NCBI GenBank assembly: GCA_021816865.1
Contig: JAKAWX010000003.1
Span: forward strand, 110,960 to 174,959
DNA length: 64,000 nt
Source: Thermoplasmata archaeon
GTDB taxonomy: Archaea > Thermoplasmatota > Thermoplasmata > Lutacidiplasmatales > UBA184
Direction: 5' to 3'
Shown: positions 23,462 through 41,243 of the stretch, in pieces
Position numbering within the stretch: the stretch's first letter is position 1
How the letters are laid out: every line of letters starts with the position of its first letter
Translations under genes and position numbers: made by a program
The notes under the pieces: generated by a model
What the model saw: the letters and a program-made list of their open reading frames with translations, nothing else
Database searches by the model: none
Told to the model about the DNA's origin: nothing

Positions 23462-23541
23462 TCTGAACCGCCGGCTCGGAGCCTCCCGCGTACGCGGGCT
23501 CGAGTCTCGGCCGCGGATATCGCTAACTCGTCGTATCCGCG

Positions 23542-23553
23542 GGTTTATAAACC
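23542..23553. promoter_or_regulatory. Palindromic TATA box GGTTTATAAACC, probable promoter of the surface-protein gene
   Basis: Perfect 12-bp palindrome containing consensus TTTATAAA, about 80 nt upstream of ATG 23461. Confidence 0.55.
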
Positions 23554-24406
23554 TATGTCAGTGGATAACCTGTCCGCGTTCCCGTTCGGGCGGAATCCTG
23601 GGGCGGTAGCGGCACGGACGCACGGCCGGAAGCGCCCTCCGGCCCTCCCTGCAGCGCCCTGCATCCGCGCACTCGGGCTCACCCATCGCACCGAGGGCCG
23701 CGCCCGAGCGTACCTCCCCGTCACCTTCGTGCGTCTTCCGCTCGAGGGGAACTTTTGGTTCGGGGCCCGAATCGAGGTCGAAACGCAACCGGCTCTTGGG
23801 AGGCTTCGGAGCGTCCATCTGCAGTACGAAGATGCGGGGACCCCGGCCGTCGGGATCGACGTTCGCCACGCCCCGCCCGGAGGACGGATCCCCCGCGGTG
23901 CGGGGAACGCGTCCCGGGGGCCAAAGCCTGCCGGAGGATCCGGATCCGCCTGGCGCACGGCCCCGGCACAGGACGTGGGGAGGTCGTCCGGGTCTCGGCA
24001 GTCGAACAAGATTCGAACCTTTCCTCTCGCCACGACGACGATCGGCCACCGTGCGGGCAGCCGAAGGTATCGAGGTCCCGGGATCGACGGCACCACCGGG
24101 CCCCCGTGGGGCCTACCCGAAGAGCCACCGTGAGCGTCGCCCCCGGGGTTCCGAACACCGAACGATGGGGCGAACGCCTTACCTCGACTCGAACGGGCGC
24201 GGAGGGACCCGCCGCACCAACTCAATTGCCCGGCCCGGGTGGGTAAGGACCAGAACGAGGTCGCGAGACCCGCTTGCTGAGCTCTGCCGTTTCGTCCGGC
24301 GCATACGGCGGCACTCGAAGAGCCTTGGCCGTTCTAGCGATGCAGTCGCTGTACGTAAACGAAATCGAGGCCGCCGTCGACGTAGGGTCTCGCCCAACGA
24401 ATTAGG

Positions 24407-24509
24407 TGCTCCCGGCGGGAGTCTCCCCGGTCGGCTCGGTCCCGACCGGCTTTGAACCCGCGTCAGAGGCTCGAGAGGCCTCTATCCTTGACCACTAGAC
24501 TACGGGAGC
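24407..24509 (-). tRNA. tRNA-Glu (anticodon CUC) with a 30-nt intron at position 59/60
   Basis: Reverse complement folds as acceptor GCTCCCG/CGGGAGC+A73, D-arm GTCT/GGAT, anticodon arm GAGGC-CT[CTC]GA-GCCTC and T-arm GCGGG-TTCAAA^T-CCCGC. CCA is not fully encoded (ACCT). Confidence 0.93.
24421..24450 (-). other. tRNA intron (T-loop, 59/60) with relaxed bulge-helix-bulge motif
   Basis: GCCGGTCGGGACCGAGCCGACCGGGGAGAC; 8-bp CCGGTCGG/CCGACCGG hairpin; bulges AAG and ACT; removal restores the T-loop TTCAAAT and a 73-nt tRNA. Confidence 0.88.
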
Positions 24510-24734
24510 GCCACGCGCCCGTAGGGGAACGCCTCTTTGAGGCTTTCGCCGTTCCGGGTCTCCGCGCGGTAAGAATCTCCGGCTCCCGGCGCCCGCCGAG
24601 GGGCCCGGTCCGCAGCGGGGGGGTCGAGGCCGGCGAGCGACGCCGGTCCGTGGGAGGAGGGGGCGCAGGGGCCCTCCGACCGCGCGCTCGCGCGCCGGGA
24701 GAAGCGCTAAGAGCCGGCGGGGGCTCGTTCGAAC

Positions 24735-25201: not shown

Positions 25202-28200
25202 CTAGGGCGCGCTCGGGGGCCGGCGGAACGGCCAGAACGGGGCCGCGGCCGAGACCCCCGGACTCTCGCTCGTCCCCGTCTCCTGGAGCTTCTTCAGCGC
25301 TTCGCGGGCCTTCGCGAGCGCCGCGGGGTAGCCCTGGTCCCGGAGGCGGATCGACTCGACGAGCAGCGCCCGGGCCTCGGTCGTGTCGACGTGCCGCTCG
25401 TGCGCCCGCACGAGCCCGGCGTCGATGAGGTAGTGGAGGTTCATGAGCTCGCGATGGAGGGATTTGCGGAGGCTGAGCTCTTCCTCCGTGGAGATGAGGA
25501 GCCGCGCCGCGTCGAGGAGCCGACCCGACCGGTCGAGCTCCTCGATCTCCTTCAGGCGCTCGCGGACCGGGCCGACCGTCACGTGGAGACCTTCCTCGGC
25601 GAACGTCACCTCGGCGCCGAGCTCCTTGCGCCGGGCGACGAACGGTTCGTGGATCGCCGGCTCGAGGGCCGCGCTCGCGCGGGCGAGGCCCGCCTCGGCC
25701 TCCGGGAGGTGGTGGGCGTCGAGCGCCGCGCGGGCCTCGCTGAAGGTCTGCATCATGGGCGTCGTGTCGACGCCGAGCCGCTCTCCGATCCACAGGCGGT
25801 CCTTGAACACCGCCATCTTCGCTTCGAGCTCCTCCGCCCGACGGCGTCGCGCGACCTCGAGCTCGGCGCGGAGAAGGACGAGCGCGCCGCCGAAGTCCCG
25901 ACGCTCGCGTAGGGTCGCGAGCTGCCCAACGACCTCCTCGCGTCGCGCCGTCTCCGCCGCGCTCGGAGGGCCCGAGCGCGCGTACTCGGCCTCGACCTCG
26001 CGGTAGCGGCCGTCGATCACCGATTCGAAAAGGCGCCGGCTCGCCACCGTGCCCCGGTCGAGCGCTTCGCGGACCCGGCCCCAATCGCGCGTTCGCAGCG
26101 CCGCCTCGGCCTCCCCCGCGATCGCGTCGATCGCATCGACCTCGCCCGTGAGACCCTCCTTGCGGGCCGACTCGATCTGGCGGCGGAGCTCGCCGAGCGG
26201 CGTCGCGACCAGGCGTTCGATCGCCCATCGGGCCATCTCGGTCGCCTCGCGGCCGATGCGGATCGCCTCCGAGTACTGGCCGAGTTCGAGGAAGTGCCGT
26301 CCCTGGCCGAGGTGGCCGGCGGCCTCCGCCACGTCGGCGTGGTTCTCGATCGCTTCCGCGATCTGGCGGTCGGCCCCCCCGACCGCCTCGCGAGCGCGGC
26401 GGTGCGCTTCGCGGGCGACGCCGAGGGCATCGATCGCGGCCATCGCGCGCTCGAGGACGTCCGGATAGGCATGCTGCTGGAGGGCGGCCTTCGCGGCCTC
26501 GAACTCCTGGGAAGCGACGGGCGCGAGGATCCCCTCCGCGACGGTCCGGGCGATCGCGGCGCCGGTCGCCTCGACCGACCCTTCGGCGAGGCGGCGCTGG
26601 AGCTCGACGCGCTCGAGTTCGGTCTCGCTCTTCGCGGCGAGCTGCAGCGCCTCGACCGACCGACCCTCGTCGAGGGCCATCCGGGCCTGGTGGAGGAGGT
26701 TCTCGGCGAGCGAAGTGTCCGCGCCGGTGTTGCGGAGACGCGACAGGATCGCCTGGAAGCCCGCGAGGTTCTTCGAAACGTGCTGGTACGTCGCTTGGAG
26801 CAGGTCGCGCTCGAGCGGCCCGCCGAGTTCGATGACCCGCGCGAACTGCTTCTCGCCGAGCAACTGTTCGAGCCGGTCCATCGCCCCGCGGAGCGCGACC
26901 GTGTCGACGTGCAGGAGCTCCGCTTCGGCGAACGCCTCGCGGGCGCGCTTCGCCACGCGCTGCCCGTGTTCGACCAGGCCTCGGGTGGAGACGAACTCGC
27001 GGCGCGCCTCGTCGAGGAGCGTCGCGGCCCCAATCGGCACCGGGAGCCCGATGCGCCGCCGCGCCTCGCCGAGCGGCTCGAGGATCGGGACCAGGTCGAC
27101 GCCCGCGGCTCGCGCGATGTCGAGGTCGCGCTCGAGCGCGCGCAGGTTCTCCTCGAGCACGGGTCGCAGGACGGCCGTCAGCTCGTCATGGAGGAGACGC
27201 GCGCCCGTGCGCGTCGCGCCGGCCGGGGCGGTCGTGCGCTCGGTCTTCAACTGGTGCGCGCGCGCGGCGAACGGCTCCATCGGCGCGGCGAGCCGCCGCC
27301 CGTCTTCGACGAGCTGATCGATCTCGGCCAGGAGGCGACCGGTCTCGAGACGGGCATCTTCTTCGCCGAGCTGTGTCTCGGTCGTCTCGAGGATCTCGCG
27401 CGCCCGGTCGAACTCGAGCGCCTGGAACGCGAGCCGTGCGTTGCGCAGCGCCTCGTAGTACGGCCCCGGGTCCGCGCCCGCGCTGCGCAATCGGCCAAGA
27501 TGCTCCTGACCGTGGGAGATCCCTTCGAGGATCTGCTGGGCGGCGGCCCGAGCACGGCTCGCCGACTCCTCGAGACGGGCCGCGGTCTCGTATGCGGTGA
27601 GGTGCTCGGAGGCCCGCGCCGCCGTCTGCGCGGCATCGAGCTGCGTGCGGAATTCGCGGAGGTCGAGGCCCATCGTCTCGAGTTCGACGAGCGAGAGCTT
27701 CGCGTGCGAGACCGCTTCCTCGCTGCGCAGCAGCTGTTGCTGGAGCGCGCGCGTCCGGATTTCCTGGGAGGCCCGCGACGCCTTCACGAAGTCGCCCATG
27801 TTGAAGATTTGCTGGACCTCATCGATCTGGTGCTGGACTTCGTCACTCGGGCCGCCCATCGACTCGAGGACCCGGCGCTCGGCCTCGAGCCCCTCGACGA
27901 GCGCGGAGGCGTGGGCCGCGAAGACCGCCGAGAAGTCGCGCTCGGCCCGGCGCAGGCTATCGAGCGACCCGATGAGGTCTTCCTTGACCCGGAGGCCAAC
28001 GTCCGCATCGGCGAGCAAGCGCCGGACGGGGGCCGTCAGAGCCTCGTCGGGGATGTCGGCGAGCCCCTGCTCCATCTCTTCCACCCGGTGCGCGACGTGC
28101 GGAGCGGCCGCGGTCCTCAGTTCGACCTCGGACCGAGCGATTCGCTCGGCGGCGTCCGCGAGGTCGCCACGGTCGAGGAGCTCGCGCGCCTCGGTGAGGC

Positions 28201-29662
28201 TCCCGTCGACGGACGGCGGGAGGAACTCCCGTTCCCGGGCGTACTCGCGGACCTTGTCGAGCGCCGTCCATCGACTGAGGTAGAACTGGAGCGCTTCGCG
28301 GCCGAGACGAACGACCGTCTCGCGCAGGAGCTCGCGCGCCGGTGCGACCTCCGCCCGCTCGACATGCTGGCGGAGCCGAGCGAGAACCCCGTCGAACGAC
28401 TCGACGGCGAAGCCCGACCGTCGGAACCGCTCGGCCATCTCCTCGAGCGACTGGAGCTCCTCGGTGACCGTGTCGAGATCCTCGGTGAGCCGCCCGACCC
28501 GGTCGAGCGCCTCTTGGCTCGCCGCGAACGCTTCGGAGTAGATCTTGAGTCGGATCGCCTCGCGGGCCCGGTTCATCGACGCGAAGACCTCGCTCGGGTC
28601 CCGACCGAGCCGACGGGCGTTTGAGATCCGGGGCCGGATCTCGTCGAGGATGCCGGCGATCACGGTGACGACGGGCTCCTCGGCGGAGCGACGCGCCTCG
28701 ACGAACAAGGGGCCGATCTCGAGCGCCGGGGCCTTGGTGATCCTCGCGAGCGCTTCGGCGATCGTCTGGCGGGCCGCCGACGGGTCGATCCCGTAGTCGA
28801 CCGTCTGGTCCAGCGACGTCTTCAGCGCCTCGAGCGCGAGGGCGCACCGCTCCCGCAGGGCTTCGGTGACTTCCTCGGCGGCCCTCTCCGTCGCGGGGAC
28901 CGTGTCGGGCCATTGTTCGGGCGAGACGTCGGCGCCCCGGTCGAGCGCCGCCTCGAGCCCCGAGGTCGGGGCCCCGTGCTCCTTCGCCTGGGCCATCAGG
29001 GCCGCCGCCCGGTCGCGCACCGACCGCCGCTTCTCGGCGGCCTCGGGGAGTCCTTCGCGCACGAGGCGGTGGACCGCATCGAGCGCTTCGGCGAGCCGTC
29101 CTTCCCGCGCCGGGTCGACCGCGGCGTCGAGCTGGCGCTCGAACTCCGCGAGCCGGTCCGGGGAAAGGCCGCCCCACTGTGCGGTGCGCAACGCCCGCGT
29201 CCGGGCCCGGGCGACCTGTTCGGCCTCGGCGGCGCGTAGCGCCTCCTCAACGCGGGCGAGCCGACCGATTGAGGTCGACCAGCTCTCGTCGGGGGGGAGT
29301 TGCGCGAGGGCGTCGAGCTCCGCCTTGACCTCCGTCGGGATCGCGACCCCGATCCCCGAGAGGCGTCCGAGGGCCTCGACGGTGCGGGCGCGTCGCCCCT
29401 CGAAGCTGAGCGGGACGGTCTTAGACAGATACTCGAGGAGGGCTTTCGACTCGCGGTCCACGCCGTCCCAGTCGGAGCGACGCTGGAGCTCGCGGATCGC
29501 CTGGGCCCGGTCGCTCGTCCCCGGCGGGCTCAACCCGAGCTCTCCCAGCCGCGCCAGCTGCTCCTCGACCTCCTTGAACGACGCCTCGGCGACCTGCCGC
29601 TGGCGCTTGAGCGCCTCGGCCTTCTCCTGAAGGATTCGAGTCAGGCGGGAGGACGGCAGCAC
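25202..29662 (-). CDS. Giant all-alpha helical-repeat/coiled-coil protein (1486 aa)
   Basis: Recurrent units such as GADTSLAENLLHQARMALDEGRSVEAL, GVDTTPMMQTFSEARAALDAHHLPEA and HVDTTEARALLVES; no Walker A and no TM. Confidence 0.85.
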   Translation of the reverse strand: MLPSSRLTRILQEKAEALKRQRQVAEASFKEVEEQLARLGELGLSPPGTSDRAQAIRELQRRSDWDGVDRESKALLEYLSKTVPLSFEGRRARTVEALGRLSGIGVAIPTEVKAELDALAQLPPDESWSTSIGRLARVEEALRAAEAEQVARARTRALRTAQWGGLSPDRLAEFERQLDAAVDPAREGRLAEALDAVHRLVREGLPEAAEKRRSVRDRAAALMAQAKEHGAPTSGLEAALDRGADVSPEQWPDTVPATERAAEEVTEALRERCALALEALKTSLDQTVDYGIDPSAARQTIAEALARITKAPALEIGPLFVEARRSAEEPVVTVIAGILDEIRPRISNARRLGRDPSEVFASMNRAREAIRLKIYSEAFAASQEALDRVGRLTEDLDTVTEELQSLEEMAERFRRSGFAVESFDGVLARLRQHVERAEVAPARELLRETVVRLGREALQFYLSRWTALDKVREYAREREFLPPSVDGSLTEARELLDRGDLADAAERIARSEVELRTAAAPHVAHRVEEMEQGLADIPDEALTAPVRRLLADADVGLRVKEDLIGSLDSLRRAERDFSAVFAAHASALVEGLEAERRVLESMGGPSDEVQHQIDEVQQIFNMGDFVKASRASQEIRTRALQQQLLRSEEAVSHAKLSLVELETMGLDLREFRTQLDAAQTAARASEHLTAYETAARLEESASRARAAAQQILEGISHGQEHLGRLRSAGADPGPYYEALRNARLAFQALEFDRAREILETTETQLGEEDARLETGRLLAEIDQLVEDGRRLAAPMEPFAARAHQLKTERTTAPAGATRTGARLLHDELTAVLRPVLEENLRALERDLDIARAAGVDLVPILEPLGEARRRIGLPVPIGAATLLDEARREFVSTRGLVEHGQRVAKRAREAFAEAELLHVDTVALRGAMDRLEQLLGEKQFARVIELGGPLERDLLQATYQHVSKNLAGFQAILSRLRNTGADTSLAENLLHQARMALDEGRSVEALQLAAKSETELERVELQRRLAEGSVEATGAAIARTVAEGILAPVASQEFEAAKAALQQHAYPDVLERAMAAIDALGVAREAHRRAREAVGGADRQIAEAIENHADVAEAAGHLGQGRHFLELGQYSEAIRIGREATEMARWAIERLVATPLGELRRQIESARKEGLTGEVDAIDAIAGEAEAALRTRDWGRVREALDRGTVASRRLFESVIDGRYREVEAEYARSGPPSAAETARREEVVGQLATLRERRDFGGALVLLRAELEVARRRRAEELEAKMAVFKDRLWIGERLGVDTTPMMQTFSEARAALDAHHLPEAEAGLARASAALEPAIHEPFVARRKELGAEVTFAEEGLHVTVGPVRERLKEIEELDRSGRLLDAARLLISTEEELSLRKSLHRELMNLHYLIDAGLVRAHERHVDTTEARALLVESIRLRDQGYPAALAKAREALKKLQETGTSESPGVSAAAPFWPFRRPPSAP

Positions 29663-29818: not shown

Positions 29819-30205
29819 CTAGGTCCGGGTGATCCGTCGCTTTCCCATCGCGTCGAGATATTGGACCTCGGCGCCCGGACTGAGCTGGCCTTTCATCTCG
29901 GCATCGATCGGAAGGCTGAACGTCTCGTAGGTCTCGAGGTCCATCAGCTGCACTTCGACATCGGTCATCGAAAGGACCTGGGCCTGGCGCTTGCCGATCA
30001 TCGGCACCAGCACCTTGTGCTTTACCGGGAACACGACGCTGCGCTTCCCGCCGTCGAAGAGGCCCACCGCATCGATGCGAGCCTTCGCCTCCCCGTGCTT
30101 TCCCGGTTTCGAGGTCTGGATGCTGATGATACGGCACGGCTCCTCCTCGATCAGCATGTACCGGCCCTCCTTCAGCTCGCGGACCTCCTGCTGCGTCCAG
30201 GCCAT
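29819..30205 (-). CDS. eif5a: Translation factor aIF-5A (eIF-5A)
   Basis: [12 protein letters not shown] hypusine motif and [11 protein letters not shown]; start re-called at ATG 30205. Confidence 0.97.
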
Positions 30206-30344
30206 CGGGGTGTTCCTCGAGGTCCGGGGAGAGTCGGGACGGGATAAGAGTTGCCCCGGATTCCGGGGCGGGACGCGACGAGCGGCCAAGGGTTTATTCC
30301 CCACGACCCCCCTCGTTCTCCGTGGGTTCTCCCGGGCGCTAGGT

Positions 30345-33300
30345 ATGGCATCGCTCCCCGACGAGTACCGGCCCGCGCAAGTCGAGCAGGAGGTCCGGGC
30401 GCTCTGGAAGGCGCACGGCCTTCCCCCGACGACCGGGAGCCTCGGCCCGGCCGGGGGACCGACGGTCCGCCAGTTCGTCGGGACGTTCACGTCCGGAGAC
30501 GCGGTCGCGATGGTGGCCCAGCGCGCGTTGGCCGCGGACGTCGATGCGCGGTATCTCGCGCTCACGGGACGCCGGACGCTCGCCACCTTGCGACGGGAGG
30601 GGCGGCCCGATAGCGATCCGGCGGGCCCGGTCGAGCGAGCCCTCGTGCGACTTGGGGTCTGGGTCGGGGGCAGCGGAGGGGGTCCCTCCGACTCCGAGGA
30701 CCGCCACGCCCGCGTTGAGCGGATCGTGGGTCAGCTCGCGCGGCGGGGAATCATCGCGACCCGCGACCTCCCGCTCCGCGTCTGCCCATCGTGCGCGGCC
30801 CCCCGGAGCCCCGAGCGGATCATCTACCAGGAGGAGGACGGCGACACGTACCTCGTCCGATTCGACCTGCCGCTCGACGGCCGGGTCGCCCGGGCCCTCG
30901 TCTGGGTCGACGCACCGTGGCGGCTCCTCGCCACCAGCGCGATCCTTGTGAATCCCGACCTTCCCTACGTCGTCGCGCGCTACCGCCGTCGGGACACCGA
31001 AGAGCTCGTCTTTACGTCGCGCTCCTCGCTCGAACGGTTCCGTTCCTGGATCCCCGGTGCGACGTTCGAGGTACTGGAGGAGCGACCGGGGCGGGAGTAC
31101 GCCGGGCGTGCCTACGGCTACCCGCTCGCGCACGAGTTCCCGATGGGCGGCGCGCTCGCCCCTCCGGCCGGCACGATCCTCGAGGTGCCGGACGTTACCG
31201 ATACGGGCACGGGCCTCGTCCCGCTCGTCCCCGGACACGGGGCGACCGACGCCGTGATCGCCGAGGCCCACGGGATTCCCGGGTGGCCGCTCGTCACGCC
31301 GACCGGCCAGCTCGATGTCACGCTGAAGCACAAGTACGCCGGCCTCGACCTGCGCACGGCCACGGAGTTCATCGTCCGCGACCTCAGCGAGAGCGGCGCA
31401 ATATTCGCGCAGCTGAGGGTTCGCCGGGGCGTCCCGCATTGCGCGCTTTGCGGGAGCGCCCTCGTCTGGACGCCGGGGCGCGCCTGGTGCCTCGAGCCGG
31501 GACGGCTCAGCGCGGAGCTCGCCGAAATGTACCGTCGCCTCCTCCCGGCCGCTCCGGCGTTGCCGCAGGTCGAGGTCGCACCTTGGCCGGTCAGCGAGAC
31601 GACCACGAACTCGGATCCCTCGGCGGTGGCGCTGCTCGAGTGTCCGTCCTGCGAGAGCCTGGACAGCCTCGACGCCTCTCCGTCGTGCCGATGCGGCGGC
31701 ACCCGCTACCCGGTCCGCCGGCGCCTAGTTCCGTCCGCCGCCGGTGTTTTGGCCGCATGGGCACGCTCGGACCCGTTCCCCGGCGCGGACACCGCCCGGC
31801 TCTACGTGGGGGAGCGGCGGGCCGTGCCGACGGTCGTCCACCACCTCACGGCGCTCGCGGGCGTGGACGGCCTACCGGCGGAGGTCGGCGTGACGCTCCT
31901 GCCGACGGTGACGGAGATCGACCTTGTCGCGCTCGCGGACCAGCACGGCGCGGACGCCGTGCGGACCGCTCTCGTCCGGACCGACGCCTCGGGTCGGGCG
32001 AGCGAGACGTTCGTCGAGCGGTGCACGCAGGAGCGGGGCCGGCTCGACCACCTCTGGCGGTTCGCCCGCGAACTCTCGGAGCGACTCGACCCGGCGCTGC
32101 TCGCCGCGTTCGGTTCCCCGGTCTCGGGGGTCCTCGGGGAGCTTGAGGTCGAGGACCGCGCCCTCCTCGCGCGGTGGGAACGAGCGCGGGTCCGGGCACT
32201 GGCCGACTACGACCGATGGTCCGCCGCGTCGGCGCACCGTCGGGTCTTCCGGTTCCTCGAGACCGACCTCGCCGAGTACCGCGAGTGGGTCCGACCGAGG
32301 ATCGCCCTCGTGGGGAGCCCCCCGTCGAAGCGCGCGGCTCTGCGCACGTTGGTCCACGTCCTCTCCGGCGCCGTCGGCCTCCTCGCGCCGGTCGCCCCCT
32401 TCACCGCCGAAAGGATCCGCCGCGCCCTCGTGCCCGACCGCACGAGCCTCTACGACGGACGCCTCGCGCCGGTCGACCGGGGGCTGATGGGCGACGATCT
32501 CACGGTGGCGTGGGACCGATGGAGGTCGGTCCTCGCGGCACTCCGTTCGTTCCGACGGGCGAACGGGCTCTCGAGCGACGTTCCGATCCCGTCGGTGGCG
32601 CTCGTCGTCGGCACGGAGGAGGTCGGGACGACGTTGCGCGGCGACCGCCCTTTGCTCGAACGTCTGGGGAACGTCGCCAAGGTCGTCGTCGGCTCCCCTT
32701 CGGACCCGTGGGCGGGGCGCCAGCACCAGATCCGGCCGAACGAGCCCGAGATCCAGCGGGTCTACGGTTCGCAGGCCTCGCAGATCGCCCACCTGCTTCG
32801 GCGCATGCCCCCGCGGCGGGTCCGCGACCCGGGCGGCGGTTCCGACCTCTCCGTCGTCATCCAGGGCCAGCCGCGCACGCTCGCACCGTCGATGGTCTCC
32901 TACTCCGAGAGCCTGCCCGAGCGGGTCGTCCCCACCCCGTGGAGCCTCGGCGAAATGTACGCGGAACGCCCCGTAGCCGGCCGCTCGTCCGCGAGCCCAC
33001 CGCCCCTCTCGCCCGACGCGTTCTGGCTCGTGCGCCGGCTCGATCGCCGCCTGCGGCGTGGGCGCGCTTCCGGGTCGGTGCCCACGGTCGCCGTCATCGC
33101 GACCTCGGACCCGCTCGCCGCCGAACTGAGCTCGGCCTCCGGTCCGCTCGCAGCCTACCTTGGGCTCGGGGAGGTCCGGGTGAGCGATCGGATCGAGGAG
33201 CCTGCCCCCTCCGGGGCGGTCACCGGGCGCGCGAAAACGGGCGTCCGCTGGTGGGTCGACGTCCCGGGGCTCACGCGCCCCCCGCGCCGAACGAAAGTCC

Positions 33301-35105
33301 GCGCGTCCCGACGGCACCGGCGCCGGTTCCCGAGCGGGTTCGTTCCCGTCGGGGGTGTTCCCGTCGAGGTCGACTACGCGGCCGAGGAGGTCGTTTCTCG
33401 GGAGCAGGCCATCCGGGCGCTCAACCAGGAGCTGGACGCCGTCCTCGGCGTCCCGGTGCTGGGCCCGACCAAGGTCGCGGCGGCCTGGGACAAAGGCCTA
33501 CGACGTGTCGAACAGTTCCGCGACGTTCCGTTCGAGGACCTATCGGCCCTGCCCGGGTTCGGCCGGGCGGTGGTCGAGCTCCTCTTCGGCCGGTTCGGGG
33601 TTGCCGGGTCGGTCCCGGCGACGCCCGGACCGGCCCCCGTCGCTCCGTCGCGCCGACGCCGAGCCCACGCGCCACCGGCCCTACCGGTCGGGCCGGCGAC
33701 CGCCGATCTCTCGGCGGTCGGCCCCGCCGCCGCAGAGACCCGGTCGCCACCGTTGGCCATGGGCTCCTTGGCCGCCGCGCCCGACTCGTCCGAGCTCCCC
33801 GCGGCGAGCCCTGTATCGACGGCGGAGGCTCCCGCATCGCTCGTTCCCCCATCGGGGTGCGCGCAAGGGGCCGGGACCCCCTCTCTCTCAACCTCGCTCG
33901 TGCCGGTCCCGACGTCGTCCCCGCTCGTTCCGTCGGACCTCCGGGACCGCCCGCGCGCCCTCGTCGAGACGGACGCTGTCGTCCCGGAGGAAAGACCACA
34001 GGACGAACCCGGGCCCGAGTCCCCGGAGGCGCTCCCGATCCCTCCGTCGCCCGGCTCTCCGGCCCACGACGGCGTGGCGGCCGATGGAGCCGAAGCGGCG
34101 GGGACGGGCGCCGTACTCCCTCTAGCCCTCGAGGCCGCGATCGAGGCCGACGCCCAAAACGCTGGAGCCCTGACGGAGACGCCGGGACGGGAGACCGAAC
34201 CGGCCGCGGGGAGCGCGGTCGATCGGGGCTCGCTTCCCGCACCCGCGTCGCCGGCGGTAGCGGAGGAGTCCCCGACAACCGCTCCCAGCGGTCCCGCGGC
34301 CGGTCCTGCCTCCACCACCGGGCCTGTGGGAGGCGTCGGGACCACGGATGCCCCTGTGGGCGGGCCGGCCCGTCCGGTCGGGGGCGACGCGGCCGTTTTC
34401 CCGGGGGCCGAGCCTCGTATCTCGCTCGATCCCGTGACGCCGACGTCCATTAAGGCGTCCGGTGCGACGGACCCACGTTCGCCCCCGGGCTCGCCACCCG
34501 AGCCGCCGATCCCTCCCGAAGGAACCACGACCCGAGGGCCTCCGGCCCCCGCCGGTTCAGCCTCGTCGTCGCGTTCCCTTGAGGCCCCCCCTATCGCGCT
34601 CCCGGCCGTGCCGCCGGAGGAGCCGGCGCGGGGATCGGTTTCCGCGCCTCCGAGGGCCGGTGTGGAACTCGAAGTGGGAAGCTCGATCCTGACGTCCCTC
34701 CAGCCGTTCCTTGATGCGACGGCCGCCGGGCACCCCGGGCTGTGTCTCGTGCGAGAGTCGCCGGAGCGCATCTCGGCCCAGGTCGGCCGCCGCCCCGTCG
34801 ATGTCTACTGGCTTACGAACCTCGGGCGGGGGCGGACCCTCAAGCCGAACGACCTTCCCGCGGTCTTCGCGTCGCTGACGCGCGCGATCACCGGGGAAGG
34901 CCGGACGGTCGTCTTCGTCGAGGGGCTCGAGTACCTGGTCCGGCTCCACGGGGTCGACGCCGTGGTCGACCGACTCGCAGAGTTCGACCGGTTCGCGAAG
35001 GAGCACGACGTCCGGGTGTGGACGCACGTGAGCCCCGAACTCCTGCGGCCCACCGACCTCGAGCGGTTCGTCCGCCGCTTCACTCGGTCCGGACCGTCCG
35101 CGTAG
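30345..35105 (+). CDS. Inactivated isoleucyl-tRNA-synthetase paralog fused to HhH, Pro/Ala-rich linker and C-terminal DUF835 domain
   Basis: IleRS-like N-terminus (EQEVRALW), CP1 motifs ([23 protein letters not shown]), HGADAVR, anticodon bundle ([11 protein letters not shown]), IRPN..; HIGH and KMSKS absent; LSALPGFG HhH; C-terminal [24 protein letters not shown]; start re-called at ATG 30345. Confidence 0.85.
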
Positions 35106-35216
35106 ACGCGCGGTCGCCGCCTCGAGGTCGGGAGCTCCCCGTCCCGGAGAGGGGCGGGCGGGCTAACGAACGGTTAGCGTGATTAGATATCATCGGACGG
35201 TGGTCCCGTCGAAGAG

Positions 35217-35942
35217 ATGGGGACCGTGCGTACCTCCGCCGAGCGGGCCCGCCGGCGGACGGCCCCGCTCGCGGTCCTGCTCGTCGTCGTTCTGCTCCTC
35301 GGTGCGGCCGGGGCGTTCGCCCCCGGCGCGGCGCGGGCCGCCGCGATCGGATGCTCGAACGTGAGCGCGAAGTACGGTGTGAACGCCACGGTCACGTGGA
35401 ACGGCGTGAACGTGTGTTCGGGCGGTTCCGCCTCGTCGGCGTTCTCGGTCGACCTCACCCAGTCGATCGGCCTGCGCTACAACTGGTCCGGACCGCTGGG
35501 CCATCCGCTGTCGCTGAACGACGCTCGACTCCAGATGTTCTACTTCGGCTTCCCGCTCGCGACCCGGGACGTCACGACGGTCGGGGGCGTCCAGGGGCCC
35601 TCCGGGAGCTTCGTCATGAACTGGACCCCCGGAGTGATCGCCTACGTCCTCGAGGGGCTCTACGGGCTGACCGCGAGCCTCCTCGCGACGAACGGCACGA
35701 CAGTTTTCAGCGAGGATTTCTTCGTCCATGCGAACGCCCCCTACGGGATCCTTGCGGCCCTTCCGATCCTCCTCGTCGTCCTCGGGATCTACGAGGTCTA
35801 CAACGTCGCGCGTTCGGGACGGCAGGCCGCGCTCCCGAAGCGGGCAGCGCCGGCAGGCCCCCCGCCGCCGCCGCCGGAGCCGGGCGCGGGACCCGGTCCG
35901 GACGGCGCGGGTACTCCCCCTCCGGGAGCCGGAGGACCATGA
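35217..35942 (+). CDS. Membrane-anchored/exported hypothetical protein
   Basis: N-terminal signal/TM, beta-rich domain with sequons, C-terminal TM and Pro-rich tail. Confidence 0.75.
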   Translation: MGTVRTSAERARRRTAPLAVLLVVVLLLGAAGAFAPGAARAAAIGCSNVSAKYGVNATVTWNGVNVCSGGSASSAFSVDLTQSIGLRYNWSGPLGHPLSLNDARLQMFYFGFPLATRDVTTVGGVQGPSGSFVMNWTPGVIAYVLEGLYGLTASLLATNGTTVFSEDFFVHANAPYGILAALPILLVVLGIYEVYNVARSGRQAALPKRAAPAGPPPPPPEPGAGPGPDGAGTPPPGAGGP

Positions 35943-36178: not shown

Positions 36179-36391
36179 CTACGGACCGGGCCCGCGGCGC
36201 GAGAGCGCTCCGACCATCTCGTCCGGCGTCACGACCGGGCGGCACTCGATCTCGCGCGCCCCCGCGAACTCTTGGATCACGAGGTCGTAGAAGGCCCGGG
36301 CCCGCTGCGAAGGGAGGTCGGCGGGGCCGTCGGGGCTTCCGACGCCCTTGCGGAGGACGGCGGGCCGACGTTCGGTACGCGCAGGGGTCAT
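36179..36391 (-). CDS. Small hypothetical protein (70 aa) translationally coupled to hemE
   Basis: ATGA overlap with the hemE stop; MTPARTERR...RARAFYDLVIQEFAGAREIECRPVV. Confidence 0.4.
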   Translation of the reverse strand: MTPARTERRPAVLRKGVGSPDGPADLPSQRARAFYDLVIQEFAGAREIECRPVVTPDEMVGALSRRGPGP

Positions 36392-37428
36392 CGTCGAGCT
36401 CGCGGGAGGCCCTGGGAGTGGACGAAGTCGACGAGGTCGGCCACGTGCGCGGGGTCGGTCTCGGGCAACACGCCGTGCCCCAGGTTGAAGACGTGCGAAC
36501 GATGGTCCGGGATCTCCTCGAGCACCTCCCGGGCCTCCCGACGTAGCGTGGCGACGGGGCCGAGGAGCGCCCCCGGGTCGAGGTTCCCCTGGAGGGCGAG
36601 CCGGGTCCCGACGCGCCGTCGCACGCGGTGGAGGGGCTCGCGCCAGTCGACCGAGAGCGCGTCCGGACCGGTCCGGGCCAGCCCCTCGAGGAGGTGGGAC
36701 GACCCGGTCGAGAAGAGGATCGTCGGTCGCCCGAGGGACCGCACCCCCTCGAAGATGGTGGCGAGCGGCTCGCGCAGGTGCCGCTCGAAGGTGGCCGGGC
36801 CGACGGCCCCGATCCAGGTGTCGAACACCTGGAGCGCGGCGGCGCCGCTCTCGGCCTGCATCGTGAGGTAGTCGACCGCCAGCGTCGCGAGCCGATCGAC
36901 AAGGCGGTCGAACGTCCCCGGGTCCCGGTAGATCATGCGCCGGGTCGCCGAGAACTCCCGGTCGGCCCGCCCTTCGATAAGGTAGGACGCGAGCGTGAAC
37001 GGGCCGCCCGCGAAGCCGATGATCGGGCGCTCGTGCTCGAGCTCGAGGTACCGCTCGATCGCCCGGCCCACGAACGGCACGCTGTCGCGCGCCGAGAACG
37101 CGCCGAGCGCTTCGACGTCCCGCCGGGTCCGGATCGGGCGCGGCACGACCGGTCCTACGCCCGGATCGATCGAGAAGTCGATGCCGAGCCCGGCGAAGGG
37201 GAGCGTGATGTCGGCAAAGACGACGGCGGCGTCGACGTCGTAGCGGTGGATCGGCTCGAGGGTGACCTGGGCCGCGAGCTCCGGCGTCCGGGCGATCTCG
37301 AGGATCGGGTGCTCCCGTCGAAGCGCCCGGTACCCGGGCAGGTGGCGCCCGGCCTGTCGCATGAGCCAGATCGGGACGGTGTCGGTCTCCTCGCCCCAGA
37401 GCGCCCGGGTCAGGCGGTCGCGGGTCAC
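36388..37428 (-). CDS. hemE: Uroporphyrinogen decarboxylase
   Basis: PIWLMRQAGR, FADI, IGFAGGPFTLASY, QVFDTW, LQGNLDP and FNLGHG motifs; GTG start overlaps the hemL stop. Confidence 0.95.
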   Translation of the reverse strand: MTRDRLTRALWGEETDTVPIWLMRQAGRHLPGYRALRREHPILEIARTPELAAQVTLEPIHRYDVDAAVVFADITLPFAGLGIDFSIDPGVGPVVPRPIRTRRDVEALGAFSARDSVPFVGRAIERYLELEHERPIIGFAGGPFTLASYLIEGRADREFSATRRMIYRDPGTFDRLVDRLATLAVDYLTMQAESGAAALQVFDTWIGAVGPATFERHLREPLATIFEGVRSLGRPTILFSTGSSHLLEGLARTGPDALSVDWREPLHRVRRRVGTRLALQGNLDPGALLGPVATLRREAREVLEEIPDHRSHVFNLGHGVLPETDPAHVADLVDFVHSQGLPRARR

Positions 37429-38732
37429 GGGGAACCCTCCCGGCAAGCCCGGAACGCCGCCCGGAGCGCCGGCGCCGCCCGTTCGACCTCGGCGGGTCCC
37501 GTCGCCATCGAGACGAACGCGGTCTCGAGGGCCGACGGCGGCAGGTAGATCCCGCGGTCGAGCGCGACATGGAAGAACCGGGCGTAGCGGGCGCGGTCGG
37601 TCGTCTCGGCCCCCTCCACGTTCGTGATCGGTCCCGGCGCGAAGAAGAGCCCGAGCATCGAGCCGGCCCGCTGGAGCGTGAACGGCTCGGCGCGGAGTTC
37701 GGCGGCCGACTCGACGAGCACGCGCTCGAGAAGGCGAGAGGTCTCCTCAAGCCTGCGGTAGCGCGAGTCCGTGAGCGCGTCGAGGGTGGCGATGCCGGCG
37801 GCCATCGCGACCGGGTTGCCGGCGAGCGTGCCGGCCTGGTAGACGGGTCCGACGGGGGCGACGACCTCCATCACCGCCCGTCGGCCGCCGTACGCCGCCA
37901 CGGGCATCCCGCCCCCGATCACCTTGCCGAGCGTGACGAGGTCCGGGCGCAATCCGAGCGTCTCGCCGATGGTTCCCCGGCGCAGACGGAAGCCCGTGAT
38001 CACCTCGTCCGCGATGACGAGCGCCCCGGCTCGGTGCGCGAGGTCCGAGACCGCCGCGAGAAACCCGGGGCGCGGAGGGACCACCCCCATGTTGCCGGCG
38101 ACCGGCTCGACCACGACCGCGGCGACCGATTCACCCCAGCGCTCGAAGAGCCGGCGGAGTGCGTCGGGGTCGTTGTACCGCGCCACCAGAGTCTCCCCCG
38201 CGATCGCCCGCGGGACCCCGGCGGAATCCGGGAGCGACCCCGCGGCAACTCCCGAACCGGCTCGGGCGAGCAGGCCGTCCGAATGTCCGTGGTACCCGCC
38301 CGCGAACTTGACGATCTTGGAGCGGCCCGTGCGGCCTCGCGCCGCCCGGATCGCGCTCATCACCGCCTCGGTCCCCGAGCTCACGAAGCGCAACCGTTCC
38401 AAGGTCGGGACCGCGCCCTTGATCCGCTCGCCGAGCTCGTGCTCGAGGACGCTCGGCGCCCCGAACGAGAGCCCTCGGGACGCGGCCCGTTGGACCGCTC
38501 CCACGACCGACCGGGGCGCGTTGCCGAGGAGGTTCGCCCCCCACGAGCCGACGAGGTCGAGGTAGCGTCGGCCGTCCTCGTCGACGAGATACGGCCCGCG
38601 GCCGCGCACAAAGAAGACCGGGCTCCCGCCGACCGCGGCGAACGACCGGACCGGGCTGTCGACCCCGCCGACGAGCGTGCGCGCGGCCCTCCGGAACAGG
38701 GCCCGGGACCGGGGGCCGGCGCCCCGGCTCAC
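37425..38732 (-). CDS. hemL: Glutamate-1-semialdehyde 2,1-aminomutase
   Basis: GGVDSPVR, SSGTEAVM, GGYHGH, DEVITGFR, LGKVIGGGMP and YQAGTLAGNP motifs; start re-called at GTG 38732. Confidence 0.96.
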   Translation of the reverse strand: MSRGAGPRSRALFRRAARTLVGGVDSPVRSFAAVGGSPVFFVRGRGPYLVDEDGRRYLDLVGSWGANLLGNAPRSVVGAVQRAASRGLSFGAPSVLEHELGERIKGAVPTLERLRFVSSGTEAVMSAIRAARGRTGRSKIVKFAGGYHGHSDGLLARAGSGVAAGSLPDSAGVPRAIAGETLVARYNDPDALRRLFERWGESVAAVVVEPVAGNMGVVPPRPGFLAAVSDLAHRAGALVIADEVITGFRLRRGTIGETLGLRPDLVTLGKVIGGGMPVAAYGGRRAVMEVVAPVGPVYQAGTLAGNPVAMAAGIATLDALTDSRYRRLEETSRLLERVLVESAAELRAEPFTLQRAGSMLGLFFAPGPITNVEGAETTDRARYARFFHVALDRGIYLPPSALETAFVSMATGPAEVERAAPALRAAFRACREGSP

Positions 38733-39475
38733 GGGAGGCCGTCCGCGAGGTCGAGCGCCCGCCTCGGGGAGGTCCGGACGCACGTGAAGATCGGGGTCTC
38801 GAGGGCCGTGTACCGGCTCGCTTCCGACGGCCGGAGGTCGTTCACGAGGTCGAGGAACTCGTCCGGGCGGTCGGCCTCGAACGCGAGGATGAATTCCATG
38901 TCGTCGAGACCGAACGAGTAACCGGTGTGGATGTCGACACGGGGGTACTTGTGGCCGATGCGGAAGTGCTCGCCCATGATGCGGCGGCGCTCCTCGAACG
39001 GAAGGCCGTACCACTCCCGCTTCTTCACGAACGGGTAGACGAAGAGGTACGGCCGATCGCCGGGGCGACGCCGGGTGCCGGTCCCCTCGCCTCCGTGCGC
39101 GTGCGCGCCGAGGTACTCCGACTTTCGGGCCATCCCGAGGTAGGAGTAGGGGGTCGCGAGGAACGGCCCGAGCCCGGTGCCGAGGACGCGGGCGTGAAGC
39201 GTCTGGACCGGCTCGAGCGCCGGCGCGACCGACCAGACGAGGAAGTCGACCCCGGCCTTCAGCCCGACCGTCGAGTAGGTGCCTACGAGGACGTTCTCGG
39301 GGGGGTGCTCGAGCACTTCGACGAGCGCGGCCTTTCCCGCCTCCCGCTCCGGTCGGGGGAGGCGCCGCCACCCCGGCTCCACGCGGTAGAAGGTGTACTT
39401 GACGACGTCCCGGGGCTCCTCCGTCCCGGGAGCGTCATCGGCCGCGCCCGGTCGGGACGGGGTCGGGTCGGTCAC
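38729..39475 (-). CDS. chdC: Coproheme decarboxylase ChdC/HemQ (chlorite dismutase superfamily)
   Basis: YPFVKKREWY, ERRRIMGEH..IG and YSFGLDD.EF motifs; lies inside the heme cluster. Confidence 0.88.
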   Translation of the reverse strand: MTDPTPSRPGAADDAPGTEEPRDVVKYTFYRVEPGWRRLPRPEREAGKAALVEVLEHPPENVLVGTYSTVGLKAGVDFLVWSVAPALEPVQTLHARVLGTGLGPFLATPYSYLGMARKSEYLGAHAHGGEGTGTRRRPGDRPYLFVYPFVKKREWYGLPFEERRRIMGEHFRIGHKYPRVDIHTGYSFGLDDMEFILAFEADRPDEFLDLVNDLRPSEASRYTALETPIFTCVRTSPRRALDLADGLP

Positions 39476-40491
39476 CGGTCCTCCCGGAGCCAGCGGACCG
39501 CGTCGCGCGCGAAGTAGGTGACGATGAGGTCGGCGCCGGCTCGGCGGATAGCGACGAGCGTCTCGCGGGCGGCCTTCTCGAGGTCGACGATCCCGCGGGC
39601 GGCGGCGGCGTGGATCGTCGCGTACTCGCCGCTTACCTGGTACGCCGCGAGCGGGAGGTCGAAGCGGTCCCGCGCCCTCGCGAGCAGGTCGAGGCTCGTG
39701 AGGGCGGGCTTCACCATCAGGATGTCCGCTCCCTCGGCGGCGTCGAGCGCCATCTCCCGGAGGGCTTCGCGGCCGTTGCGGGCGTCCATCTGGTAGCCGG
39801 CACGGTCACCGAATTCGGGGGCCGACCCCTCGATCTCCCGGAACGGCCCGTAGAAGGCCGAGGCGTGCTTGGTCGAGTACGCCAGGACGCCGGTCCCCTC
39901 GTAGCCGGCATCGTCGAGGGCGTGCCGGATCGCACCGACCTGGCCGTCCATCATGGCGCTCGGGGCCACGACGTCGGCGCCCGCGCGCGCGTGCGCGAGC
40001 GCGACGCGCTGAAGCCGTTCGACGGACGCGTCGTTCGCCACATCGCCGTCCTTCACGACCCCGCAATGGCCGTGGGTCGTGTAGGCGCACAGGCAGACGT
40101 CGGTCGCCACCACCAGGTCCGGAGCCGCCTTCTTGAGCGCCCGAACCGCCTCGGGGACGAGGCCGGTGTCGGACCACGCGTCGCTTCCCTCGGCATCCTT
40201 CGTGCGGGCGACCCCGAAGAGCAGGACGGACCGCACCCCCTCCGAGGCGAGCGTGCGGCCGAAGGGGCCGATCCGTCCGAGCGGGTACCTCGCAACGCCC
40301 GGGCACGACGGGACCGGGGTCGGGCCCCCTCCGCCCGGTCGGACGAACAGCGGGAGCACCCATCGGTGGCTCTCGAGATCGGTCTCGGCGATCCAGTCCC
40401 GAAGGGCGGCCGTGCGACGCATGCGTCGAGGCCGGACGACGGCCGAGGGGCGCGCGGGCCGGCCACCGTGCTCGATGACTCGGGAGTTCAT
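39472..40491 (-). CDS. hemB: Porphobilinogen synthase (ALA dehydratase, Zn type)
   Basis: RPRRMR, DVCLCAYTTHGHCG, PSAMMDG, FYGPFR, MVKPA and AYQVSGEY motifs; start re-called at ATG 40491. Confidence 0.96.
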   Translation of the reverse strand: MNSRVIEHGGRPARPSAVVRPRRMRRTAALRDWIAETDLESHRWVLPLFVRPGGGGPTPVPSCPGVARYPLGRIGPFGRTLASEGVRSVLLFGVARTKDAEGSDAWSDTGLVPEAVRALKKAAPDLVVATDVCLCAYTTHGHCGVVKDGDVANDASVERLQRVALAHARAGADVVAPSAMMDGQVGAIRHALDDAGYEGTGVLAYSTKHASAFYGPFREIEGSAPEFGDRAGYQMDARNGREALREMALDAAEGADILMVKPALTSLDLLARARDRFDLPLAAYQVSGEYATIHAAAARGIVDLEKAARETLVAIRRAGADLIVTYFARDAVRWLREDR

Positions 40492-41234
40492 TCGATCCCC
40501 GCGGGGAGAAGTGGGCGCGTAAAGCGTTGTGCCGTCAGCGAGGGCGTGACGGAGATGCGGACAAAGCCGGCGGCCCGTGCGGCTCGGGCCGAGCGCGGTC
40601 CGATCACGACCAGCCGGACGCGGCGGGCGAGCCGGGCGAGCGAGGGCGGGTCGAGGGCGGCGACCAGCGCGCGGAGGGCGGAGGGGCTGCTCGCAACGAT
40701 CAGGTCCGCGCGCGCGAGACGGGCGCGTTCCGCCCGCCCGAACCGGGCCCGCAGCCTCGTCCGATAGACGACGACGTCCGTTACCGTGTGGCCGCGAGCG
40801 CGAAGGGCGCGAGCCAGGGACGGCCCCGCCCGGTCGGAGCGGAACCGCAAGATCCGCCGCCGCCCCCGGCCGATTGCCCGGGCGACGGCCGCCCCACCGA
40901 GCCCCGGCGGCTCCCGCACGTTCGTGACCCCGACCGACCGCAGCGTCGCGGCGGTTGCGGGTCCGCTCGACCAGTACCGCACGCGGCGGGCCCGTCGGCC
41001 CTCCTCGCGCCACGGGACCACGCCGGCAAGGACGCCGGATCGGCTCGTGACCACGACGTCGTCGACCGCGCCGAGCGCCGAGAGGGGCGGGCGCCACGCG
41101 GACGGGGGGAGCGGTACCGGTTCGACCACCACGAGGCGAGTGACCTTGGCCCCCCCGACGCGAAGCGCTTCGACGATCGGCTCGAGGGCGTTCGGTCCGG
41201 TGAGCAGCACGACCCGCACGCGACCGTGAGGCAC
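40488..41234 (-). CDS. hemD: Uroporphyrinogen-III synthase
   Basis: VVTSRSGV, GPATAATL, VYRT, SSPSA and VIGPRSA motifs; position between hemC and hemB. Confidence 0.82.
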   Translation of the reverse strand: MPHGRVRVVLLTGPNALEPIVEALRVGGAKVTRLVVVEPVPLPPSAWRPPLSALGAVDDVVVTSRSGVLAGVVPWREEGRRARRVRYWSSGPATAATLRSVGVTNVREPPGLGGAAVARAIGRGRRRILRFRSDRAGPSLARALRARGHTVTDVVVYRTRLRARFGRAERARLARADLIVASSPSALRALVAALDPPSLARLARRVRLVVIGPRSARAARAAGFVRISVTPSLTAQRFTRPLLPAGIE

Positions 41235-41243
41235 GAGCTCCTC

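Follow-up and report, generated by a model that had tools for sequence, protein, structure and literature searches.

The DNA analysed here, referred to as the window, is a 64,000-nt stretch of contig JAKAWX010000003.1 (positions 110,960-174,959, with its own numbering from 1) from a Thermoplasmata archaeon. On its forward strand, a single open reading frame (ORF) at 30345-35105 (ATG at 30345, stop codon at 35103-35105) encodes a protein of 1586 aa, in which an isoleucyl-tRNA synthetase (IleRS)-like body is followed by a double helix-hairpin-helix, (HhH)2, by a P/A/S/T/G-rich linker of 355 aa and by a DUF835 domain. As judged from alignments, the gene product is a pseudo-enzyme: its IleRS-like body is of full length, but the aminoacylation site has been dismantled. 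The gene is, on the same kind of evidence, a descendant of a fused IleRS-HhH-DUF835 that is widespread in the Thermoplasmata. The G+C content around the gene is 68-76%, in a genome of 72% G+C. The features of the gene are as follows:

30345..35105, forward strand: whole gene, pseudo-IleRS-(HhH)2-linker-DUF835, stop codon included (ORF, Pfam, NCBIfam).
30293..30298, forward strand: TTTATT, which may be a TATA box, 47-52 nt before the ATG (direct sequence reading).
30345..30734, forward strand: N-terminal helix and remnant of the first Rossmann (HUP) half, residues 1-130 (alignments, dN/dS).
30735..31499, forward strand: CP1 hinge, first zinc knuckle and editing-like domain, residues 131-385 (ileS model, dN/dS).
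Within 30735..31499, forward strand: first zinc knuckle, C147/C150 with C366/C369 (alignment).
31500..31949, forward strand: CP2, second zinc knuckle and second Rossmann remnant, residues 386-535 (alignments).
Within 31500..31949, forward strand: second zinc knuckle, C433/C436 with C448/C450 (alignment).
31950..32594, forward strand: helical domain and anticodon-binding domain (ARD1), residues 536-750 (Pfam Anticodon_1, valS model).
32595..33269, forward strand: ARD2 with an INS-like segment of about 65 aa, then ARD3, residues 751-975 (aligned to the DUF5915 region of fused IleRS).
33270..33329, forward strand: basic stretch, residues 976-995, with 11 K/R in 20 (sequence reading).
33405..33599, forward strand: (HhH)2, residues 1021-1085 (weak HHH_5 match and alignment to fused relatives).
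33600..34664, forward strand: P/A/S/T/G-rich low-complexity linker, residues 1086-1440 (composition, conservation, dN/dS).
34665..35102, forward strand: DUF835 without Walker A, residues 1441-1586 (PF05763, dN/dS).

DUF835 (PF05763) was recognised by Pfam at residues 1457-1577 with 51.8 bits, above the gathering cut-off of 33.1 (57.6 bits in a second, genome-wide scan), and Anticodon_1 (PF08264) at residues 604-747 with 40.1 bits against a cut-off of 25.1 (E 4.3e-10). The match to HHH_5 (PF14520) at residues 1032-1078 is weak (16.3 bits against a cut-off of 27); the same HhH columns, aligned one by one, score 45-131 bits as HHH_5 in fused relatives, and the profile of this region is similar to the HhH segments of Hel308, eL32 and Pol X. 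The linker consists of P, A, S, T and G for 67% of its residues. No kinase domain was found in the protein by Pfam, and no Walker A motif (G....GK[ST]) is present in its whole length, as is expected of an inactivated KaiC/RecA-like form (iKaiC). A preliminary description, made from the letters of this DNA, had already proposed a DUF835-like domain, an anticodon-binding bundle, several Cys knuckles, a linker of about 350 aa rich in P/A/S/T and an HhH, whose string (LSALPGFG) begins at residue 1066 (nt 33540); all of these were recovered.

For the synthetase body, the NCBIfam ileS model TIGR00392 (EC 6.1.1.5) scores 103.7 bits, below its cut-off of 621.4 (71.6 bits in the genome scan), its positions 154-428 corresponding to residues 122-385, and the valS model scores 81.3 bits with a match at residues 525-797. 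No Pfam match to tRNA-synt_1 (PF00133) was obtained in the protein at E<=1, whereas canonical relatives score 349-446 bits. Compared with canonical archaeal IleRS (TIGR00392; structures 8C8U and 1ILE), the order is the same over about 975 residues, namely HUP, CP1/editing, CP2, ARD1, ARD2 with the INS-like segment, and ARD3, but HIGH, KMSKS and three other active-site stretches are lacking and (HhH)2, the linker and DUF835 are added. A family profile (A1), which includes 7 canonical or near-canonical fused IleRS, matched 8c8u over positions 1-952 with an E-value of 4e-129.

The loss of the synthetic site was examined by alignment to the canonical and the fused IleRS encoded by relatives, with 11 paralogues of family f1, to which this gene belongs and among which it is counted. 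In all 11 aligned paralogues (i) HIGH is replaced, residues 52-55 of this protein aligning as DAVA, (ii) the GWDxHGLP stretch is deleted, (iii) DWCISRQR is replaced, (iv) about 26 residues around EGxDQxRGWF are deleted, and (v) unrelated sequence stands in the place of the KMSKS loop, which is not a deletion. These losses, together with the missing tRNA-synt_1 match and the low ileS score, bear out the earlier claim of a catalytically dead IleRS-like paralogue. The strings on which that claim was built lie at residues 46-65 (HIGH region, nt 30480-30539), residues 288-302 (CP1-like) and from residue 518 (KMSKS region, nt 31896); for the last of these the loss of the motif stands, but the loop had been called deleted and is in fact replaced, since the true deletions are those of the GWDxHGLP and EGxDQxRGWF stretches. 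In the editing-like domain, WTTTPWT has become WVDAPWR, with the Trp residues kept, and the His of GTGxVHxAP has become Pro293, while Asp302 of the following HG..D is retained. Four Cys pairs (147/150, 366/369, 433/436 and 448/450) are invariant among 63 aligned sequences. The basic stretch at residues 976-995 is without counterpart in canonical fused IleRS and is basic in all aligned f1 paralogues displayed.

Whether a separate IleRS accompanies the gene was addressed by genome scans. The assembly to which it belongs (G000; 1.54 Mb, 11 contigs, 83% complete) yielded no canonical IleRS and no ValRS, and its only other tRNA-synt_1 proteins are LeuRS and two CysRS-like genes. By contrast, a canonical unfused IleRS and a ValRS are encoded in 18/18 sampled congeners (about 740-806 bits where complete, fragments in four), so that the separate ileS presumed by the preliminary description exists in the genus and was not found in this particular assembly. 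In at least five congeners (G002, G003, G005, G010 and G013), a distance of about 40-90 kb on a single contig separates the two genes, and 16 of the 27 ORFs in the 60-kb ileS/valS block of G013 have no match in G000, the nine ORFs nearest to ileS being unmatched without exception (9/9); ileS and valS are thus probably both absent from G000 because of one missing piece of the assembly. The idea that the gene is itself the working, highly divergent IleRS of the organism draws on the failure to find a canonical one in G000, but it is scarcely credible, as the protein retains none of the class I signature motifs and has deletions in two stretches of the active site, ValRS is missing too from an incomplete assembly, and the 18 sampled congeners have a canonical enzyme, whose surrounding block in G013 is largely unmatched in G000. 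As a side observation, the two CysRS-like frames (G000:C2:146715-149288 and C2:291497-293632) each have an HVGH-type motif and KMSKS, and seem to represent either a CysRS duplication or a paralogue related to CysRS.

The fusion is real and not an assembly chimera. Indeed, an 8161-nt contig of sequencing run X1, possibly the source sample, spans 30809-35300 from body to tail with 0 differences, and identical contigs from a second sample of the same study tile the gene. Nor is the fusion a lone case: 156 database relatives were found and, among the 120 listed, 113 carry PF08264 together with PF05763, the other seven having PF08264 without PF05763, several of them labelled partial or much shorter. 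According to genome scans, the paralogue is present in 46/56 other genomes of genus g1, in 4/4 of g12 and in 5/5 of g66; the presence counts include three genomes flagged unpublished (G122 and G166 with the paralogue, G152 without), whose sequences were left out of the analyses.

The dead copy is under purifying selection. The ratio of nonsynonymous to synonymous substitutions (dN/dS, Nei-Gojobori, calculated for one pair only, with L049/L050 as the closest relative) is 0.13 over residues 1-580, 0.36 for the first Rossmann remnant, 0.06 for the editing-like domain, which is the lowest of the parts measured, 0.14 for residues 386-580 (CP2 and second Rossmann remnant), 0.26 for residues 727-985 (ARD2/3), 0.105 for residues 986-1085 (basic stretch and HhH), 0.84 for the linker and 0.16 for DUF835. 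Across 129 paralogues, conservation is likewise highest in the editing-like domain (top-residue frequency 0.76) and lowest in the linker (0.23, with an occupancy of 0.58); 231 positions are at least 93% conserved, among them GTGxVxLVPGHGxxD and W187/D189/W192. A functionless, decaying gene whose frame has stayed open by chance in a genome with 72% G+C is very improbable in view of these values. High G+C does yield many long spurious ORFs, the gene has been lost in some congeners, and its stem branch is very long (2.32 and 1.75 changes per site in the two trees described below), but a dN/dS of 0.06-0.36 outside the linker largely refutes decay, and against it stand also the conserved positions, the full-length frame retained in more than 100 relatives at 33-90% identity, and the dead fused copies found in low-G+C genomes as well (families f3, f12 and f17; the f12 and f17 loci have 35-50% G+C).

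The fused architecture extends well beyond family f1. Of the 121 genomes of the class, 107 gave a DUF835 match, and in most families sampled a genome contains 5-30 of them. When a fusion was counted as an ileS match (E<=1e-100) and a DUF835 match lying in one open frame, paired by hand, it was present in at least 47/121 genomes of the class, and the fused gene is, among the matches listed, the only ileS match in at least 22 genomes of 10 families (f4, f5, f10, f14, f16, f18, f26, f27, f28 and f30). According to Pfam, tRNA-synt_1, Anticodon_1, DUF5915, HHH_5 and DUF835 are encoded by a single ORF in f2, f3, f4, f6, f11, f16, f17 and f25, and in one of two f12 proteins. Variants of the tail also occur: an f5 protein (G026) has a zinc ribbon and no HHH_5 match, an f10 protein (G076) lacks HhH, and a motif-less IleRS-like protein of f12 (G033, L056) has three HHH_5 and no DUF835, while its counterpart in the same family (G097) has both, and the tail is therefore modular. 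In the f2 fused proteins, about 70 residues separate HHH_5 from DUF835 (Pfam coordinates), as against the 355-residue linker here. In addition, the fused IleRS-DUF835 frames of f11 are 1758-2929 aa long, reaching 2335-2929 aa in G113:C27, G134:C9 and G032:C3, and an f25 protein of 1805 aa (G087, L066) has a TPR_19 match between HhH and DUF835.

The state of the catalytic motifs differs among these fused proteins. They are intact (H[LIMV]GT and xMSKS or a close variant, such as PMHKS in G076 and PMSKT in G077) in the aligned representatives of f4, f5, f10, f16, f6, f22 and f23, most of which also have WTTTPWT and GxVHxAPGxGxxD. Where an unfused IleRS is present as well, the fused copy is canonical in f6, f22 and f23, is without KMSKS in f2, f11 and f25, and is without HIGH, GWDxHGLP and KMSKS in f12, f17 and f3; the f1 form, to which this gene belongs, shows the greatest loss, with deletions in the active site in addition to the loss of motifs. 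The unfused IleRS of f1-f3 is of a different sequence type (PPTANGxPHxGH, DWALSRNR) and is devoid of the ARD2 segment of about 65 residues, which the fused forms and this paralogue have. By its position, this segment is a candidate INS subdomain, which is described as the binder of the tRNA D-loop in a study of IleRS (PMC13752280).

In trees of the IleRS body only, rooted with ValRS as outgroup, the f1 paralogues form a monophyletic group (support 100). Their stem measures 2.32 changes per site in the first tree, which makes them the sister group of the f3 fused copies with a support of 91; in the second, where it measures 1.75, they fall inside a clade of all fused forms (93), the unfused clade being separate (100). 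The motif-less copies of f12, f17, f3 and f1 cluster together in the second tree (100). This tree comes from a quick LG+G4 analysis and has long branches and a skewed composition, so that the cluster may be an artefact, and both a single and a repeated inactivation of fused copies would be compatible with the trees. The preliminary description had presented the gene as a synthetase paralogue repurposed as a fusion. This order of events has to be abandoned, as the fused IleRS is older and class-wide and, in many Thermoplasmata, is motif-intact and the only IleRS found. As far as alignments and trees can tell, the fusion predates the inactivation and, in lineages endowed with an unfused IleRS, the fused copy has lost its catalytic motifs stepwise while the gene stayed intact and under selection. 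The fused Thermoplasmata proteins, annotated as isoleucine--tRNA ligases, thus share the architecture and the gene lineage of the protein described here, but keep the motifs that it has lost.

The retention of the tail after the loss of catalysis suggests that the tail has a role of its own and that the body contributes something besides charging. The reading preferred here, whose chances appear about even, is that the protein would be a sensor of tRNA(Ile) status, or an adaptor, acting through DUF835. The constrained CP1 pocket, the zinc hinges, the anticodon-binding domain and the INS-like segment, together with the basic stretch and (HhH)2, suggest that the body would keep binding tRNA(Ile) without charging or hydrolysis, the remodelled CP1 pocket probably taking the 3' end of the tRNA, aminoacylated or free. 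Furthermore, response regulators and receptors with Ig domains have DUF835 at their C-terminus, in the output position, which suggests that here it could relay the binding state to partner proteins, most likely KaiC-like ATPases. On the side of this reading, G000 has at least five strong KaiC-like ATPase matches; KaiC-like ATPases of this genome lie at C10:149609-150301, C10:90194-90862, C2:61491-62228, C2:63953-64687 and C3:35375-35986. Both the comparative series and the place that DUF835 takes in other proteins strengthen the case for a sensor. In GCN2, a HisRS-like domain serves as a non-catalytic tRNA-binding input derived from an aminoacyl-tRNA synthetase (aaRS), with a class II fold, a kinase as output and a eukaryotic distribution. 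The likeness to it would be one of working principle only and not of family, since the body here is that of a class Ia IleRS, the output would be DUF835 and tRNA binding is putative.

Architectures in which DUF835 follows an input domain are known from response regulators: a table in PMC5847659 lists REC-DUF835 and REC-PAS-PAS-DUF835, in which DUF835 is labelled 'iKaiC'. In REC-DUF835 regulators (PMC5847659), DUF835 is C-terminal behind the input domain, as it is here, but the input is a receiver domain instead of a synthetase body of 975 residues. Outside the class, eight long DUF835 frames (at least 1300 aa) were found in other classes of the phylum and five of them were followed up; an IleRS fusion was sought there and rejected in all (0 of 5). 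In three of the five, DUF835 is C-terminal behind Ig-domain (Big_7/Big_9) or HerA-like (DUF87) proteins (L078-L080, Pfam), and in the remaining two it is N-terminal, as read by eye. The C-terminal position behind Ig-domain and HerA-like proteins would fit the role of a general output module. The iKaiC label for DUF835 reportedly goes back to Makarova et al. 2017 (mBio). A second DUF835 protein of G000, a frame of 323 aa at C2:260703-261671, has only the C-terminal half of the domain (model positions 69-136).

Several observations weigh against a tRNA(Ile) sensor wired to KaiC-like partners. Firstly, the Thr-rich motif and the His of the editing site, which count among the important editing residues of IleRS, are both gone, and the conserved CP1 pocket may be structural only. 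Secondly, as stated above, the scan of this 83%-complete assembly gave no canonical IleRS. Thirdly, the paralogue is missing from 10/56 genomes of g1 and from 9/9 genomes of g11, g13, g64 and g65, and a profile search confirms its absence in 10 of these genomes, whose completeness is 86-98%, so that some lineages can dispense with the gene. Fourthly, the relationship of DUF835 to KaiC was not reproduced at the profile level: hhalign of DUF835 against the KaiC-like domains of this genome gives a probability of 1% (E 0.05), albeit with the P-loop and Walker B regions falling together in that weak alignment, and a DUF835 profile found nothing significant among PDB sequences (a DNR protein at E 0.5, FlaH, 4wia, at E 0.62). 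Finally, no KaiC-like gene adjoins the gene.

The same body and tail could alternatively serve as a scaffold or a tRNA chaperone, in which HhH-DUF835 would anchor IleRS, dead or alive, in a larger assembly (for example a multi-synthetase or ribosome-associated complex or a DUF835 oligomer) with no signalling output, the dead body holding or passing on tRNA(Ile), for example the CAU isoacceptor. The occurrence of the tail on a working housekeeping IleRS in at least 22 genomes speaks for this, as its first role must have been compatible with normal charging, and so do the HhH and basic stretch, which suggest general nucleic-acid binding, and the modularity of the tail (G076 without HhH, G033 without DUF835). 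Yet DUF835 elsewhere occupies the output position of signalling proteins, nothing points to oligomerisation and partners of a complex are not encoded nearby, and a scaffold is considered unlikely. It is more unlikely still that the CP1 pocket remains catalytic, whether by deacylation in trans-editing or by aminoacyl-tRNA-dependent transfer in the manner of SbzA. According to a review (PMC9437257), SbzA is an IleRS homologue that uses Ile-tRNA as donor; moreover, the editing-like domain is the most constrained part of the protein (dN/dS 0.06) and the Asp of GTG...HG..D is kept. However, WTTTPWT has turned into WVDAPWR and the conserved His into Pro, trans-editing is not obviously needed where the unfused IleRS of the congeners has a full editing site (WTTTPWT, GTGLVHVAP...D), and no biosynthetic gene cluster lies near the gene.

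Returning to the sensor or adaptor of tRNA(Ile) status, a wider proposal can be attached to it, which is tentative and, as it stands, rather improbable: the isoleucine arm of Thermoplasmata translation would be hard-wired to archaeal signalling, the housekeeping IleRS carrying a DUF835 output, and lineages with a second IleRS would have made the fused copy a non-catalytic reporter of tRNA(Ile) charging. If true, this would give archaea a counterpart of GCN2 or of stringent-type control, with a class Ia synthetase and a KaiC-like domain in inactivated form as its components.

Other aaRS paralogues offer partial parallels, cited here from the same review (PMC9437257), which also treats IleRS2 and SbzA as an IleRS duplicate and an IleRS-like protein, respectively. 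LeuRS-I of Sulfolobaceae and LeuRS2 of Halobacteria are there class Ia duplicates that bind tRNA, charge none or barely any, and have no known role; in LeuRS-I the adenylate is still formed and CP1 is disrupted, whereas the protein described here has a destroyed adenylation site, is best conserved in CP1 and bears an added domain of signalling type. HisZ is given there as an aaRS paralogue without adenylation that serves as a regulatory subunit, but it is a bacterial class II protein without an appended domain, and what it senses, on behalf of HisG, is a free amino acid. A 2026 paper on the evolution of the IleRS C-terminus (PMC13752280) does not, in its accessible part, contain the terms KaiC, fusion, helix-hairpin, appended, extension or paralog. 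Within the full-text literature searched, neither the class-wide fusion nor its dead derivatives have been described; Makarova et al. 2017 (mBio), which lies outside that search, may bear on priority.

A single archaeal class thus offers a graded series of working fused, KMSKS-less, motif-less and finally gutted forms with deletions, by which the purpose of a synthetase body after the loss of catalysis becomes directly testable. The function of the HhH and DUF835 tail outlives aminoacylation, and this provides a first functional handle on DUF835, a domain of no known role. The series also matters for annotation. Among the relatives listed, source names include 'class I tRNA ligase family protein', 'DUF835 domain-containing protein', 'hypothetical protein' and, once, 'valyl-tRNA synthetase', and automated reconstructions could therefore take the dead copy for the IleRS of a genome.

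The neighbours of the gene suggest no function. The closest of them is:

29819..30205, reverse strand: aIF5A, transcribed divergently, 139 bp upstream (Pfam IF5A-like_N and eIF-5a).

The divergent placement of aIF5A noted in the preliminary description was recovered, but a wider linkage was not. Indeed, the adjacency is found at 11/13 f1 loci with enough flank and at none of the f2, f3 or class-level fused loci; being limited to the synteny of family f1, it gives no ground for a functional tie to aIF5A, which was rejected. No tRNA(Ile) gene is present in the window, whose sole tRNA is tRNA-Glu(CTC) (24436-24510, reverse strand), and no biosynthetic gene cluster or genes for complex partners occur nearby.

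Four further features were recorded around the gene. An ORF of 1486 aa (25202-29662, reverse strand), downstream of aIF5A, has no Pfam match and is 59-67% identical to its counterparts in two relatives. A 241-aa membrane protein (35217-35942, forward strand), with a signal-peptide-like N-terminus, a C-terminal hydrophobic stretch, a P/G-rich tail and no Pfam match, follows the gene in L048, L050 and L035-L037, no match being found in L051. Further away, a 1546-aa protein (18920-23557, reverse strand) has PQQ/BamB-like beta-propeller repeats, and a haem biosynthesis cluster (36391-41243, reverse strand) encodes uroporphyrinogen decarboxylase, a class III aminotransferase and uroporphyrinogen-III synthase.

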